Below are positions 1,797 through 39,983 of a DNA stretch of 64,000 nt, in pieces. The translations under genes were made by a program, and so were the position numbers. The stretch comes from Octopus vulgaris. Taxonomy: Eukaryota. Position 1 is the first letter of the stretch, and the number at the start of each line of letters is the position of its first letter. The notes under the pieces are model-generated. The model saw only the letters and a program-made list of their open reading frames with translations, ran no database searches and was not told the DNA's origin. Location of the stretch: contig OX597820.1 of NCBI GenBank assembly GCA_951406725.2, positions 63,488,001 to 63,552,000 of the forward strand, written 5' to 3'.

Positions 1797-2090
1797 GGTG
1801 CATTACTGAGTGGTTAGGGCGTTGCACTTATGATCGCAAGGTGGTGGGTTTGAATCTCAGACTGGGTAGCGGGCTGTGTTTTTGAGCAAAATACTGCATC
1901 TCCTCTTTCTTTGCGATTTCTTCGACATCGTAAGTATGGCACAGCGTGCCCCTATAAAAGGGAATTTGATTGAGAGGAGTTAGCTAAACTACAGCGCGAA
2001 CGTTTGATCACAACATCAACAAAAATCATCTGTGCATCTTGTTTAGTGAGAAATTTCACACCTGGCTTTCTCTGACCCGAGAGACTACCA
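1797..2090 (+). mobile_element. tRNA-derived CORE-like SINE, degenerate
   Basis: A-box-like GAGTGGTTAGGGCG and B-box-like GGTTTGAATC, followed by CORE-like GTGTTTTTGAGCAAAATACT. Confidence 0.6.
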
Positions 2091-3962
2091 TTGCATTATG
2101 TTTGGATAAACCTGTACTCACGTTTTGATGGCTTCTTACGTGTGTATTTTCTTATCGTTTATATATGGGTATAAATATATGCAGCTATATGCCCATAAAT
2201 TCGCGTGCATATGTTTTCCCCAGAGAACTCAAATGGAAAATTCCTGTAACGTTTGACACATTTTCATTGTATAAGGGTTTAGTTTTCGTTGAAAAAAAAA
2301 CACAGGAATTCTAGGCTTTTATAGAAACGTGTTGTTAAATCGATGTGAATGTGTTTGCTTTGTTCAGTTTTGGAGAAACCCATCAATTTTAAGCTTTTGT
2401 ACGAATATCCTTTGTTATGTAGGCTAGTATTGTAAAGTATGATACGTATCATGATGTATACAAGACACTCGTCAATTCCCAGAAACTTGTAAGCTTTCAT
2501 GTTTAGAAATAGGAGAGATACACAGACCGCTGGTATTCATATTCATTGGCTGTTAAACAATCATTCCTCGACTGAATTCCACTGATATACGCCGCTCACA
2601 TAACAACTAGATCACGTGTTCTAACTATCAGGAATATTCCCTAAATTCTGCCGAAGGATGTGACCAAAACAACAACTATAGGAAACATTGAAACATAACT
2701 ACCTTCCTCGTAATAATTTCTAGAAGGAATTCTACCATGTTTCATCTTTCGAATGTGTTTACACTCTCGTATTTGTTGCTAGTTATCATTTTATTCGATA
2801 TTTTATTCCAAATTATTTAGGCCTCACGGAATGTAATTTCACTGTGGAAATATCCCATCTTCAATTACTATTTTGTAGCTATAAGTCTTCCGTCCATATA
2901 TCGATAATCATCGTTAATACGAACGCCATTTACAATCTGTTGTACAGCTGTAGTTTTAGGAACAAATCTTCTCGTGTACTACTTACTCTGTTCGTTTTCC
3001 TTTGTCGTGTTTGTCTTCTTCCTTATTTCTTATATGTATTCAGGTGCTTCTGTTTATTTTCACATGCAATCGGTGATGTGTCTAGACCATACCACACTTT
3101 ACATCGTGAGAAGTTTTGCAGTTTCAGTGATTAGATATGTCAAGTACTAGAATTCTGAATTTTAAATTCGGTTTTGTTTATCACTTCAAGACGTACATTC
3201 ATACATACATGGCATTATACAAACATACAAATCTAGGTAGAGATAGAGATAGATAGATAGAAAGATAGATACATTGAAGTCCCAATTAATATATTTACAT
3301 AAAGATGTATCAATGCATATATTTATGCACACACATACACATACACACACACATACACACACACACACATAAAATATATATTTATATGTGTATGTATATG
3401 CATGTACTTATATATGTATATATGTAACTGTATACATATGTACATTTGTGTGTGTGTATATATATATATATCCACACACACACATACATGCATACATACA
3501 TACATACACCTATAAATACTTAAGAATATGGATTCAGGTCCAAAGCTATAGACACACGCATGTAAACACACACGTCTGTTTGCGTTCTTGCATTATATAC
3601 AAAAACGTACATATCTACGTTAGTATATAGATCGGTGCAGAGCTCGAGAGATTGATTGATACAATGTGAAAGTTGATGGTGCACTCACCTTTCATATAAT
3701 AAGAGTGAACTTTCGAAGACTTTGATGTCTTCATTCGAGCCGTCTAGACCTCTAAGCACAAATCATTTAGTTACCGGTGTGTATTGTTTACCTATTGATT
3801 ATATACAAACGCGTGTGTATATGTGAATGTGTGGGTGTGTATGCATATATCTATTCTATATCAACATGTATGAATACACGTGCACACACGCATACTCACG
3901 CATGCATATACACACAAACGAACGTGTATATATGTGTGTATATATATATATATATATGTGTG

Positions 3963-4021
<59 letters not shown>

Positions 4022-4317
4022 ATGTATGTATGTATATATAAGCATTTTTGTATATTTTTATTTCTACATGACTAATTGAAAGAAAATGGAAAATGCCACA
4101 AATATTTATATTGATCTGCTCTACGTATATATGTGTATATATATATATATAACATAAGGGACTAAAGCCATCTGAATATGGCTAGGGACAGGGCAGGGTG
4201 GTGGGGGTGTTACTGTTGCATTTAGCCCCAGGCGAACATCGACGTCACCAGAAAGGCTCGACACCGTCACGGTGCCCTAAACCTGCAAAGGGAGGTAATT
4301 CCCCGATGAAGCGGAAA

Positions 4318-4367
4318 CCACACACGGACCATGGTTTCAAGGTGTATTGCCTATCATCGGCGTGTGG
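4318..4367 (-). ncRNA. Type I hammerhead ribozyme (U4C core variant), unit 1
   Basis: Minus strand reads CCACACG-CCGAUGA-UAGG CAAUACA CCUU-GAAAC CAUG GUC^CGUGUG UGG. Stem I is CACACG/CGUGUG, stem II is AGG/CCU and stem III is the palindrome ACCAUGGU. Predicted cleavage is between 4327 and 4326. Confidence 0.8.
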
Positions 4368-4677
4368 TAGGCCTCCGCTTCCTCGACGAATTCTCTCTCT
4401 GCAGGATTTTCTTATATAGATTTTCAAGCAAAATACATTTGCTGATTTCGAAAATCTGTTCGAAAGCAATAATAATTCTCTAAAAGGGATATAGACAGTA
4501 ACTGCTCGATAACATAAGGGACTAAAGCCATCTGAATATGGCTAGGGACAGGGCAGGGTGGTGGGGGTGTTACTGTTGCATTTAGCCCCAGGCGAACATC
4601 GACGTCACCAGAAAGGCTCGACACCGTCACGGTGCCCTAAACCTGCAAAGGGAGGTAATTCCCCGATGAAGCGGAAA

Positions 4678-4727
4678 CCACACACGGACCATGGTTTCAA
4701 GGTGTATTGCCTATCATCGGCGTGTGG
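4678..4727 (-). ncRNA. Type I hammerhead ribozyme (U4C core variant), unit 2
   Basis: Identical to 4318-4367, shifted by 360 bp. Predicted cleavage is between 4687 and 4686. Confidence 0.8.
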
Positions 4728-4917
4728 TAGGCCTCCGCTTCCTCGACGAATTCTCTCTCTGCAGGATTTTCTTATATAGATTTTCAAGCAAAATACATTT
4801 GCTGATTTCGAAAATCTGTTCGAAAGCAATAATAATTCTCTAAAAGGGATATAGACAGTAACTGCTCGATAACATAAGGGACTAAAGCCATCTGAATATG
4901 GCTAGGGACAGGGCAGG

Positions 4918-5270
4918 CTGCTGGATGGCTCTATGGCTAGCAACAGGACTCTGCACCATGCCACACATGCAGGAGAACCCATCCTGGCTGTCAGACAATT
5001 TCTACGACCATATCACCTCTAAATTCTGGCCACTATACTCCCTAGACTGCAACCCGCTTGATTATTATGTGTGGGTCGCAGTTGAGCGATAGAACAACAA
5101 AACTCCTTGTAATGCCAACTTAAGCAATGAGACAGACTAGAAGAGTTGCAGGAAATTACGAAGTCGTCTGGAGGCCTGGTTGAAGCCAATGGCGATTTTA
5201 TTGAATGCATTTACTCATTAGCATTGCGAGATACTTTTATGTAACTCTGGTAAATATATCTGTTAAATGT
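4918..5270 (+). mobile_element. Tc1/mariner (maT/DD37D-like) transposase 3' remnant
   Basis: Peptides QQDSAPCH..SWLSDNFYDHITSKFWPLYSLDCNPLDYYVWVAVER..EANGDFIE match the WPPNSPDCNPLDY-type catalytic region. Stops and frameshifts are present. Confidence 0.85.
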
Positions 5271-5929
5271 GTCAGTACTATTTACAGATTTAATAATAAA
5301 ATGAAGTCTCATTATTACGAGTGATAGAAGTGGGATCCCTCACCGTAGTAGATGATTTATACAAAGGCATATATTTAGCACGTGTAGAATTGCTATACGT
5401 ACAACGATTAATATTTGAAATTCCACAGTTATTTTTATTACTTCTAATCTTTGGATTGCAAAATATCCTTTTAGATTCGGATGTGCAGTAGACATGTCCA
5501 TTATTAGGTTTTGCATACCATATGGCATAACAATCATAGTTTGCGAAAAAATATGGTTTGTCAATGAGAGATTTTGTGTTTTTTTTTTGTTTTTGATTTT
5601 TTTATATTTGGAAGAAATCATTGTATTTTTATGGGAAAAGGAGGAAGAGCGATAGCATTTAATTCTGTCATTAGGAACATTCAATGTTTTCCCAGAAGGA
5701 AACTTTATTCATATACTTATAATGTTTAGCCACATCTTTACAAGAGGGATTGATATTACTAAGTTAATAATCTGAACGACTCGCAGTTTAAGTTTACTAT
5801 TGTTCATATATTATATTTCCTTGCCATAACCTCATCGTATTAAAGCATCATCCCATTAAGCTGAAACATTATGAAATATTTTACGTTAACTGATTTATAA
5901 GAAATTATAATTGATATATTTTTAACTAA

Positions 5930-6700
5930 ATGCTTTTTAATGGATCAAGAATTATTCAATCTAGTATTTATCTAGTGAAGATTATCATTAGGTTTATGAT
6001 TAGGATAATATAGATGTGAATATAAATTAAGAGCCGGGTGAGAAAAAGCAACAATTTTGGTACTCCTCTCAAAGCTAATTGTTACATTATAAGTTCTAAA
6101 ATTGAAAGAACGATTAACGATATTTAACAGAGAATCATCAAGGTGTAGACCAACGTCCTAAGCTATGGAAAATGTTCTATAAAATACAAACACGATAGCA
6201 GCATGATTTTGTCAATTACATAATATATTTTTAAAATATGACATGTAGATTCTCTAGTCCAACAATTATCACTGAAAAATATAATTTCGCTATTGGCTAC
6301 TAAAATATCATCTATTTCTATAGAAGTTGAATAATGTCATTCTAGCGAAGTCAAGGGCTTGCATGAGCAGGATAAGGAAAATGGAAGAATGATAACAGAA
6401 ATTATCAAGTTAAAGGAAATATTATTTTTCTGTTTTCTAGATTACATCAACAATGTTATTACAAAAAATTGCTTAAACATATTTCTTGAAAGTAGGTATT
6501 ACCGTATATATTATATTTACCAATTTTACCCAAGCCAGACTTCGATGATCTCATTAATCTAATAGAAGCATTTTTAAGAGATTCTCTATTATGGACCATC
6601 ATAAACTAAGTGAAGAGTTCTTGGTTTTAAATGTTTTGTCCAAATCCTTCAAACGACTAAGCGCACTGAAAGTCAAATTATGATGGACTATACCTAATTA
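5930..6700 (+). mobile_element. Possible highly decayed Penelope-like RT fragment
   Basis: Only faint motif echoes (LSKLI; LKYDM..PTI resembling FDI..FYPSI). Weak. Confidence 0.25.
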
Positions 6701-6949
6701 TTAAACCAATTTTTGTCTAAATACACATCACGTTAGCTCTACCCCTCGCAGATGAGGTCTTATTTGGTTCATAACGCCTGCAGGGTACATGCAAGTAATG
6801 CCAAACAGATTTTAAATTAACTCTCCATCAACATCCGCGCCACACTGGACACAAAAAAGTGACCCTTTCGTTCATTTCATACGTACAAATACACACATAT
6901 ACGTACATGAACGAATACTCAAACACAAGCACATATATATGTTTTTTGT

Positions 6950-7003
<54 letters not shown>

Positions 7004-7089
7004 GCACATATGAAATTGTTAAAGAGGATAAGAAACGTTAAAGCAAGGCAAACATCTCAAGTCATATGCATTATTATTATTATTGCAAA

Positions 7090-8000
7090 AACGATTCAAA
7101 GTCTTACAGCTGTTTCTGGGATATCCCAGAGTTTGGGATATTCCATCCTCGGAGACATATAGAGAAATTGAGAAAGTTATAGTTTAATGAAATGACGACA
7201 TAGAGGATAGGAGTAAAGGAATAAAAGAAGTAAAAAGAAGCATAAAATTTACAGTTCAAATTTCCGATCATGTAGAATTAAGTCCGCAAGTCCTTAGGTG
7301 CAATCCTGCATAAGTGCATATAGGTTAAAGTCCTGATAGTGTAAATATCCAGAAAAAAGACGCGGACACATCAACGTACAATAACAGAATGGTAGCAGAA
7401 GTGGCTATTAAGTGGTAAAAAGAAAGACTAATAAAGAAATATATAGAAAAAGAGGTAGATAGAGTGAGGGAGGAAGTTAAGGATTGGCGTTAAGGATAGA
7501 ATAACGTATTTAAAAATATATTGTCTAAGTATATAGTGTACAAAGATTTCTAAGAAATTAACAGAATGGAGGAGGAGGTAAATGAGGATAACGTAAAAAA
7601 AACATAAAATTAACAAAATAGAGCAAAATGAAAAGAATTTAAAGTTAATAGTAGGTGCCACGGGTATTCTTCTAGTTTATAGGGGTTGGGGACGAAATCT
7701 AGTAGTAAATGCTTGTATCCGTTCTGGCTAAGGTCAGAGGTTGTAGATTCATATTTAGCAATGGGGTTATAAGTGTGTAGGCAGAGATGAATGGAGGAGA
7801 GACTAGTTGAATGTTAAATTATTTAGGTGTAGGAGTTAGAATTAAATATAAGATTTATTGGGTTAAGGTTTAAAAATAAATTAACACATTAATATATACC
7901 TTATAAAGTGATGTGGTAAGGTTGATAGAAGAGATATAGGGTATGTGCTAATTATAATGGTGGTTTGTATGTTGGTGTTGTTCGAGGGTGTTACATGTGT
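7090..8000 (-). mobile_element. Penelope-like element 3' part (decayed GIY-YIG region plus HHR-bearing terminus)
   Basis: Minus-strand echoes of the PLE endonuclease (KVYI, STSLSS, YNL*) lead to a clear HHR at 7101-7156. Confidence 0.5.
7101..7156 (-). ncRNA. Type I hammerhead ribozyme (CCGAGGA core)
   Basis: GUCU-CCGAGGA-UGGAAUAUCCCA AACUC UGGGAUAUCCCA-GAAAC AGCU GUA^AGAC. Stem I has 4 bp, stem II pairs 11 of 12, and stem III is the palindrome ACAGCUGU. Confidence 0.8.
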
Positions 8001-38688: not shown

Positions 38689-39983
38689 TAGTTTTATTTT
38701 TATAGCGTGCTTTCACTTCACTACTGAGCGCAGCTCTGTGTGCCTTGGGTATGTGCTGTGATTTGTTGTGATGCTCTGATGGTTATTGTATGGAAAGTGT
38801 TCTGCGTAGGATGCGTGCAGTGCCTAGTAGTGCAATTTTCTGTATGTTATATGTGTTTGTAAGTCCTGGTGTTTTTGTTATGTATTTGTCTGAATATTTT
38901 TTATTATGCCTAATGCACCTACTATGATAGGAATTGTTTCTGTTTTCAGATTCCACATTCTAGTTACCTCTATTTCCAGGTCTTTGTATTTTGAGAGTTT
39001 CTCCATTTCTTTTAGAGACACGTTGTCATCAGCCGGTATTGATACATCAATTAGAAAGCATTTTTTTCTTCATGATCTCTGACAACTATATCTGGTCTGT
39101 TGGCCTTAATTTCTCTATCTGTGTGTATCGGCATATCCCAGAGTATGGTTGCTTTCTCGTTTTCTGTGACCTTTTCTGGTGTGTGCCTATACCATCTTTT
39201 TTCTGTTGTTATTCCATAATGTTGGCATAGCTTCCAATGTATCTAGGTTCCAACTCTGTCATGTCTGTGAACATATTCCTTCTTAGCCAGGACTGGGCAG
39301 CTAGAGATAATATGATTTATTGTTTCTTGTCCATCTCCAAATATTCTGCAGTTACTTGTAATATTTCTTTTCATTACATGTTTTTGGTAATTTCTGGTGG
39401 GGAGGCTTTGGTCTTGTGCTGCAATTAAAAATCCCTCTGTTTCTGCTTTGAGTCCTGAGCTTCTCAACCATTGCTGGGATTTTTCTTTGTCTATTTCTTT
39501 TGCGTTTAGTTTAGTGCAGTATTTACCATGAAGGGGCTTTTCTTGCCATCGTTTTATCATGGTTCGTTGCTGTTCTATTTTTAGTTTGGATTTCATTTGT
39601 TTTATAGCTTTTGTTGTTTCTTCATCATCTTCTTCTTCTTCTTCGTGTTTATTAGGTGGTATGATTTCTTGTTTGTATTTGTCAGCTTCCTTAAATACTG
39701 AGAACAGTTTTTTGTTTTGCTCGTGTTTTACTGCTATCTGGATCAGGTTTCCTTCCTTCTGAAGTAGATATTTTTGCAGTCCTATGGTGGTTATTTTATA
39801 GTAGTTTTCCAGCTGTATAAGGCCTCTACCACCTTCTATACGTTGTATATATAGTCTTTCTATGTCAGATTTTGGGTGATGCATCCTAGATCCTGTCAGT
39901 ATTTTTCTTGTTTTCCTATCTATTTTGGACAGTTCATTTCGTGTCCAGTTAAGGATATTGTAGCTGTAACTTATAACTGTAAC
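38686..39983 (-). mobile_element. R4/Dong-clade non-LTR retrotransposon, 5'-truncated copy 2 (RT thumb, CCHC, REL endonuclease)
   Basis: HHPKSDIERLYIQRIEGGRGL, WQEKPLHGKY, ETEGFLIAAQDQSL, CRIFGDGQETINHIISSC (decayed CCHC), RHD and the PD..D nuclease motif. In-frame stop at 39243. (TAA)n on both sides. Confidence 0.92.

Follow-up and report, generated by a model that had tools for sequence, protein, structure and literature searches.

A young hammerhead-bearing retrozyme family of Octopus vulgaris, probably inserted by Penelope-like elements at (TA)n targets

A 64,000-nt stretch of the Octopus vulgaris genome (contig OX597820.1, positions 63,488,001 to 63,552,000, hereafter the window) contains a perfect 360-bp tandem repeat with a hammerhead ribozyme motif in each unit. 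The questions raised by this locus are what kind of element the array represents and how such a tandem comes to be inserted. A sequence-only reading of the window had described a pair of identical 360-bp units followed by 49 bp, a type I hammerhead on the minus strand of each unit, predicted cuts 360 nt apart and a long stem around each hammerhead, and all four points were borne out. Identity at a period of 360 spans exactly positions 4149-4917 (TRF: period 360, 2.2 copies), with no mismatches between the two full units (4149-4508 and 4509-4868, identical on self-comparison), and is completed by a 49-bp partial third unit (4869-4917). The insertion comprises 2.14 units and its RNA sense is on the minus strand, with the 3' end at 4149 and the 5'-truncated end at 4917. 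A (TA)n tract at the 3' junction (4136-4148) is the presumed target.

Read on the minus strand, the first hammerhead motif (4321-4366) consists of the 5' strand of stem I, CACACG (4366-4361), the core CCGATGA (4360-4354), a stem II region (4353-4339), then GAAA, CCATGG, TC and finally CGTGTG (4326-4321). The second copy lies 360 bp higher (4681-4726, read from 4726 to 4681), and the predicted cuts are at 4327/4326 and 4687/4686. A U-U mismatch underlies the three pairs of stem II; stem III is limited to 2 bp with a palindromic CAUG tetraloop; because stem III is made of two pairs and this loop, the segment ACCAUGGU is palindromic. The motif is placed at the tip of a predicted long imperfect stem (approximately 4281-4407, and again 360 bp higher), and positions 4280-4408 fold as had been claimed (-62.7 kcal/mol). 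Position 4 of the core, CCGAUGA, is C; the canonical and normally invariant base is U. The suggested check against Rfam did not recognise the motif: there was no hammerhead among 39 matches over 2000-8000, and there were no matches at E ≤ 10 over 4149-4930. Assignment of the motif is based on its sequence and on covariation among related units (described below).

The 2.8-Gb genome (227 contigs) was searched with the whole unit and with short words taken from it. The 40 candidates scored for the unit, from a total of 648, gave 245 matches. Exact hits numbered 2,042 for a 21-mer at the unit start and 1,332 for a 28-mer from the hammerhead, with none for the reversed control of either. Grouping the first 100 hits of the 21-mer gave 41 loci; extrapolated to all hits, this would be roughly 800. 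For analysis, 73 distinct loci were assembled from 40 of the 41 positional loci, 20 loci picked from the matches and 13 of 30 matched stretches; the 17 dropped stretches were duplicates (8) or overlapping pieces of one long array (9). More than 20 of the 73 loci were chosen as top BLAST hits, which biases the sample toward long young copies. The array in the window is one copy of a young dispersed family with hundreds of near-identical copies. Its unit has no protein ORF, and its ends are not LTR-like. The proposals that this is a retrozyme, that its tandems stand alone and that the family was recently active therefore hold beyond the window: 360-bp tandems with a motif in every unit occur at many dispersed loci, their arms never run into coding sequence, and the dispersed copies are near-identical.

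Related sequences place this family (family A) within a larger group. Its sister, family B, has 2,605 candidates, with copies about 90% identical to one another; it can be aligned with family A along the full unit, at ~65% identity. The core of family B is the canonical CTGATGA, and the family uses two homologous 3' ends. Sister subfamilies have canonical CUGAUGA or CUGACGA cores. Intermediate subfamilies, 76-87% identical to the window unit, retain a unit of ~359 nt, and subfamilies A, B and C all retain a unit of ~359-360 nt.

The usual insertion in family A consists of two inverted arms. Two head-to-head arms with their RNA 3' ends outward were found at 55 of the 73 loci, and the window is an atypical copy among the 18 one-armed loci. 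Variable 5' ends, (TA)n targets and one common 3' end had been anticipated from the window. The first two were found: inner 5' ends are spread over the unit, and 109 of 128 3' ends border a tract of at least (TA)3. The third gave way to two fixed ends 44 nt apart, with 52 of the 128 3' ends exactly at unit position 1 ("short") and 50 exactly at position 317 ("tailed"), which is 44 nt further along the RNA; 102 ends in all are at one or the other. The long array from which the nine overlapping pieces were dropped also ends at 317 and 1. In the window, 4149 is a short end, and the 44-nt tail between the two fixed ends is internal (4465-4508 and 4825-4868, minus strand), with 4465 corresponding to the tailed end.

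The two ends are combined in a strict manner. One short and one tailed arm were paired in 52 of the 55 two-armed loci, the others being one tailed pair and two irregular insertions. None of the 55 had two short arms; the 21-mer search could find both symmetric classes (short with short, and tailed with tailed). Inner 5' ends do not pile up at the predicted cut (unit position 178/179), since 4 of 110 fall within 170-186 where about 5 are expected, and of the 52 short arms 40 cross the cut, as do 40 of the 52 tailed ones. Nor are inner ends clustered at the start of the other arm (7/52 and 8/52, p = 0.26 and 0.14). The longest insertion is 8,328 bp (14.7 + 8.4 units). Arm lengths are correlated (rho 0.53, 52 loci), a value that the mixed sampling could inflate. 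Target duplications were identified at two loci with non-microsatellite flanks (8 bp at L042 and about 11 bp at L067). Dispersal by retrotransposition is supported by the fixed 3' ends, the variable 5' ends and these duplications.

Three further types of junction were observed. The inner junctions of L025 (2107-2318) and L161 are complex, with short pieces alternating between the strands of predicted hairpins, and look as if a polymerase had switched templates at stems. A common short sequence, CTACTAGGCCGCTGGTGGCAA, is present at or near the 5' junction in the right flank of L055 and in L128, in one case on a family A arm and in the other on a family B arm. L162 (624-1570) contains seven copies of a 119-bp unit made of the retrozyme 3' end and TA flank; this tandem was considered as the product of a smaller circle and rejected, as the inclusion of the TA flank indicates duplication of DNA.

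At its 5' end, the window arm joins the middle of an old repeat at a 2-nt GG microhomology. The remnant (4918-5286, plus strand) is not part of the element and comprises the 3' ~370 bp of an ~860-bp repeat (3,541 candidates, about 80% identity) that has broken DDE-transposase-like motifs and that we take to be Tc1/mariner. A 48-aa piece of this repeat had no hit in Pfam. The 5' ~440 bp of the repeat are absent from the window. This arrangement fits either a deletion of the target at insertion or a later loss of the second arm. Elsewhere in the window, a 246-aa open frame (39246-39983, minus strand) presumably resembles the C-terminal part of a non-LTR retrotransposon reverse transcriptase.

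Folded as a circle, the 360-nt sense monomer has a predicted energy of -117.0 kcal/mol (z = -5.0) and the antisense monomer -109.1 kcal/mol (z = -2.9; 60 dinucleotide shuffles each); a fold that allows the hammerhead lies 7.4 kcal/mol higher than the minimum for the circle. Motif variants were counted on 125 motif hits in 55 stretches. The commonest full-context cores were CCGATGA (81) and CCGACGA (21), and rarer ones were TTGATGA (7), TTGACGA (3) and the U3-A8 covariant TTGATAA (4). Among these hits the stem III loop alternates between CATG and CTAG. In the intermediate subfamilies and family B, stem III is palindromic in 19 of 28 hammerhead rows, in six different sequences (two AT-rich chance rows having been excluded). 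When five A units were compared with seven B units, 8 of 37 named pairs had changed on both sides, and 96.8% of the cells in the alignment pair versus 31-44% in slid controls. The count of double-sided pairs between A and B is not above that in shuffles (154/500), and this covariation represents a single evolutionary split; within family A, double-sided change was seen in none of 97 predicted pairs. An 8-bp helix predicted in the monomer between 4209-4216 (5' strand, minus strand) and the tail segment 4495-4502 shows one double-sided change between families A and B. Judging from these alignments, the related subfamilies preserve their predicted helices and a palindromic stem III via compensatory changes.

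The C4 core of the youngest subfamily is a reason for caution with regard to self-cleavage. A U4C change considerably lowers hammerhead activity in vitro yet permits viroid infectivity (PMC3088659). Other hammerhead motifs with C4 were noted in this genome: CCGAAGA in the terminal repeat of a Penelope-like element (PLE; L103, 5290-5345), and CCGACGA and CCGAAGA in other repeats (L075, L119 and L099). C4 therefore recurs in unrelated families of the genome.

The anatomy of the insertions points to the enzyme that made them. Among the hallmarks of PLEs are a 5'-truncated copy in inverted orientation and, at one end, a tail of 30-40 bp (PMC8557442), and the signature of a tail at one end with an inverted arm is also described in PMC3846280. 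As the retrozyme arms have an inverted partner and a tail at one end, mobilisation of the PLE type, which the sequence-only reading had favoured, is likely; the (TA)n targets agree with it. A purified PLE protein, a predicted dimer, cuts both strands of AT-rich DNA and starts reverse transcription at two internal sites that bound the tail (PMC11167929). In the same in vitro system the PLE hammerhead is dispensable for insertion and unprocessed RNA is the main substrate. For PLE tandems, PMC4209133 proposed that the template is circular; PMC8557442 lists the formation of tandem and inverted PLE structures as unexplained.

Young PLEs are present in the octopus genome. One of these has a 781-aa ORF with RVT_1 and GIY-YIG domains (11 ORFs, 98.8% identical). 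The young elements have a C-terminal GIY-YIG and a CX4CxxC linker and end in (TA)n; hence, by the linker alone, they would be of the Neptune/Nematis type. Fifteen loci of the 781-aa PLE were examined, and all three that are inverted have a tail of ~37 nt at one end only. A PLE 3' end and a retrozyme share a TA tract in 3 of the 40 positional loci. A homologue search with the 781-aa protein returned 565 proteins with uninformative names; close homologues listed under bacterial gill-symbiont names (P0030, P0041, P0055 and others) are probably host contamination of those assemblies. In L091-L102 (e.g. L094, 744-5953) the 781-aa frames are in a tandem unit of ~4.7 kb, the 3' region of which has four ~50-nt repeats around TGACGTC-like words, and L094 and L100 have a second open frame of 479 aa upstream of the reverse transcriptase frame.

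Variants within and between insertions were used to characterize the template. In 39 two-armed loci, the two arms differ at 38 of 8,277 shared positions (0.46%), as do units within arms (0.46%), compared to 2.9% between loci. In the 20 stretches with at least three full units, a variant is nearly always either confined to one unit or found in every unit of the two arms. Thirty haplotypes were found among 56 stretches, the window haplotype being common to L001, L004 and L056; some are nested and private, with private substitutions in every full unit of both arms of L156 (4/4), L141 (8/8) and L157 (3/3). The exceptions are one substitution in 2 of 5 units at L049, three substitutions in two units of C16, a long array, and, next to indels, three variants with near-complete counts. 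The presence of a new substitution in all units of both arms implies a bottleneck of a single unit. Since a linear template cannot be lengthened by truncation and arms reach 14.7 units, a circular monomer is favoured, and it would be the simplest source of the arms; alternatives that could leave the same pattern are gene conversion, assembly consensus and repeated jumps between templates. The circularly permuted, non-integer array in the window had itself been taken as the trace of a circle. The circle is supported by the haplotypes across loci, and the array alone is not proof of it, because internal priming on a linear multimer looks alike. A collision of two primers on linear RNA, in the style of L1, was also considered and is unsupported by the positions of the inner ends.

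The strongest alternative, which we nevertheless regard as unlikely, is that PLEs inserted an uncut linear multimer, with a weak or idle hammerhead and with arrays that grew and became uniform through template jumps or through processes at the DNA level. There are four arguments against it. First, many loci have new substitutions that are fixed in every unit of the two arms, and mosaics are few, as expected of a single-unit bottleneck. Second, 5' truncation only shortens a template, yet some arms have as many as 14.7 units. Third, the inner ends are unclustered at the start of the other arm. Fourth, the palindromic stem III has been kept across subfamilies. The linear multimer does account for the read-through of the cut site as well as a circle would, and it agrees with the C4 core in the youngest subfamily, with the performance of unprocessed PLE RNA in vitro (PMC11167929) and with the inactivity in vitro of 8 of 9 Xenopus retrozyme dimers (10.64898/2026.07.22.740005). 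DNA-level duplication does happen in this family, as L162 demonstrates.

A circular monomer copied by a PLE enzyme is the reading that we prefer, and we consider it likely that the element is a young non-coding 360-bp hammerhead-bearing non-LTR retrozyme that was copied by PLEs into (TA)n, probably from circular monomer RNA. In the mechanism that we propose, a tandem copy would be transcribed on the minus strand, and its hammerheads, which probably dimerise via the palindromic stem III and may be helped by protein, would cut out 360-nt monomers that are ligated into circles. A PLE reverse transcriptase/GIY-YIG enzyme, plausibly a dimer, would cut both strands of a (TA)n target and prime two cDNAs on one RNA, using the short site for one of them and the tailed site for the other. 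Both cDNAs would then proceed around the circle for variable distances before their ends are joined head-to-head. For the window copy, only the short-site arm would have been made or kept, with deletion of flanking DNA.

Whether a particular PLE family supplies the unit as well as the enzyme is a separate matter. Local alignment of the family A unit with 11 PLE 3' regions detected no similar region (z ≤ 0.6). In tblastn searches with two PLE proteins of 95 stretches and the window, PLE sequence was near a family A copy in four stretches, each time as a separate insertion beyond a microsatellite tract, and 20 further subfamily loci contained one unrelated PLE fragment. An ORF with reverse transcriptase and GIY-YIG domains was absent from the element in the stretches searched, so this is not an autonomous PLE. 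The best partner candidates are the young Neptune/Nematis-type PLEs of this genome, and since no sampled PLE end resembles the unit they are candidates by behaviour only. PLE families are undersampled in this comparison, as 150 of 6,136 candidates from the GIY-YIG search were scored.

Several leads toward a partner were followed and dropped. High z-scores of family B against PLE 3' regions were caused by a TA tract left in the query. The single blastn match across 40 PLE stretches proved to be a separate insertion of family B. At L175, a fragment of a Poseidon-like reverse transcriptase next to a subfamily arm was traced to a decayed family; many near-identical fragments of this type are grouped on the 12-Mb contig C31 (L183-L195 and L208-L209), a clustering that suggests segmental duplication. 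A 65-69-nt match near two Poseidon-like copies is situated in a separate repeat, which we take to have Helitron-like ends. This multi-copy repeat carries the retrozyme piece at L200 (5935-6335) and L212 (1860-2256), and at L132 it adjoins a two-armed family B insertion.

These searches bear on a second alternative, in which the unit would be the terminal repeat (pLTR) of an unsampled protein-coding PLE that left 5'-truncated copies behind. A pLTR, too, has the tail, the inversion, the hammerhead and the target, a relationship between pLTRs and the retrozymes of Xenopus has been described (10.64898/2026.07.22.740005), and the fraction of GIY-YIG candidates scored leaves room for such an element, but arms continue into further units and never into coding sequence, the PLE sequence nearby belongs to separate insertions, and A, B and C all keep a ~359-360-nt unit. 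We consider this explanation highly improbable. The sequence-only reading had itself asked if every copy might be the terminal repeat of a coding PLE; no PLE coding sequence was contiguous with the arms.

Sequencing runs were also inspected for the unit. Closed contigs of 390 nt (360+30) were obtained in four runs (X1, X5, X14 and X16), which are not on record as RNA, and a joint back by one unit was present in 7 of the 8 runs examined. A closed contig fits a circle or a tandem, of RNA or of DNA, and therefore proves neither expression nor circularity. Four runs guessed to be RNA cover the unit. A neighbouring multi-copy transposon remnant is covered as deeply or more, so this coverage is evidence of neither high expression nor strand nor ends. 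Runs labelled as four further organisms (B, C, D and E) likewise contain the unit, with an identity of about 98-100%, a result from which no horizontal transfer is deduced.

An assembly duplication, which had been named as a possible source of the array, is very unlikely because the tandem recurs at dozens of loci on many contigs and closed contigs occur in independent runs. More generally, the array might be a simple DNA satellite, or an assembly duplication, in which something like a hammerhead arose by chance, and the silence of Rfam and the 100% identity of the units would agree with that. This explanation is effectively refuted by the existence of hundreds of scattered loci whose ends are fixed, by inversions and target duplications, by a core and helices conserved in a ~65% identical sister family, and by closed 360-nt contigs in unrelated runs.

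With PLE-copied circular monomers as the preferred reading, a more far-reaching interpretation can be offered tentatively, as a possibility that we would not yet bet on. An independent, long-lived lineage of 360-nt RNA circles may hijack a sequence-unrelated Neptune-type PLE, the dimer of which, using two fixed sites of a single circle, would prime both strands of the target and roll twice in parallel, such that each insertion is a clonal record of one RNA. If true, this would settle how animal retrozymes integrate and explain the tail-plus-inversion signature of PLEs; the entry of retrozymes into genomes is called open in both PMC7229834 and 10.64898/2026.07.22.740005. Independent of this interpretation, the octopus family provides a junction-level argument for PLE mobilisation, a strict rule of one short and one tailed arm, and haplotype evidence that both arms derive from one template. 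Intact young PLE ORFs, a 360-nt RNA and a (TA)n target make the mechanism testable in vitro in the format of PMC11167929. No description of family A or of paired-arm retrozyme insertions was found in the literature searched, which was largely without subscription journals, Repbase and supplements.

By its sequence features, the element is an animal non-LTR retrozyme, a class known from PMC7229834. In common with the retrozymes described there, it has non-coding tandem units of a few hundred bp (350-390 bp in mussel), a type I hammerhead with a 2-bp stem III and a tetraloop, a self-paired monomer and coexistence with PLEs; a U-U mismatch at the base of helix II is shared with HHR_Amex2. It differs in the C4 core of its youngest subfamily and in its two fixed 3' ends and paired inverted arms, the word "inverted" not occurring in the main text of that paper. 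Circles were demonstrated in that study, whereas the octopus family is known here from sequence alone. The mobiliser was left open there (LINEs, PLEs or other elements). Li, Clavereau and Pollet 2026 (10.64898/2026.07.22.740005) likewise regard retrozymes as non-autonomous PLE derivatives, based on co-occurrence and pLTR similarity, mainly in vertebrates. In contrast, our evidence consists of junction anatomy and haplotype sharing, with no related pLTR among the sampled families. Furthermore, they favour local tandem growth after insertion, whereas octopus arrays appear to be made at insertion.

Similarities to PLEs themselves are equally extensive. Neptune/Nematis PLEs with an endonuclease (EN+; PMC8557442, PMC3846280, PMC11167929, PMC4209133) have an inverted 5'-truncated partner, a tail at one end, microsatellite targets, a palindromic hammerhead stem III and the U3-A8 core variant, all of which have counterparts in the octopus family. 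Unlike these elements, the octopus retrozyme has no reverse transcriptase or endonuclease ORF, its repeat unit is the whole element, and its tail is 44 nt rather than 30-40 nt. Non-autonomous Chlamys PLEs, such as MRC1 (PMC8557442), are comparable in that they are non-coding, depend on PLEs and form multicopy head-to-tail insertions. However, these elements resemble their autonomous partners at the 3' end and the octopus unit has no related partner among the PLEs sampled, and, while most Chlamys elements are without hammerheads, the octopus unit carries a hammerhead motif.
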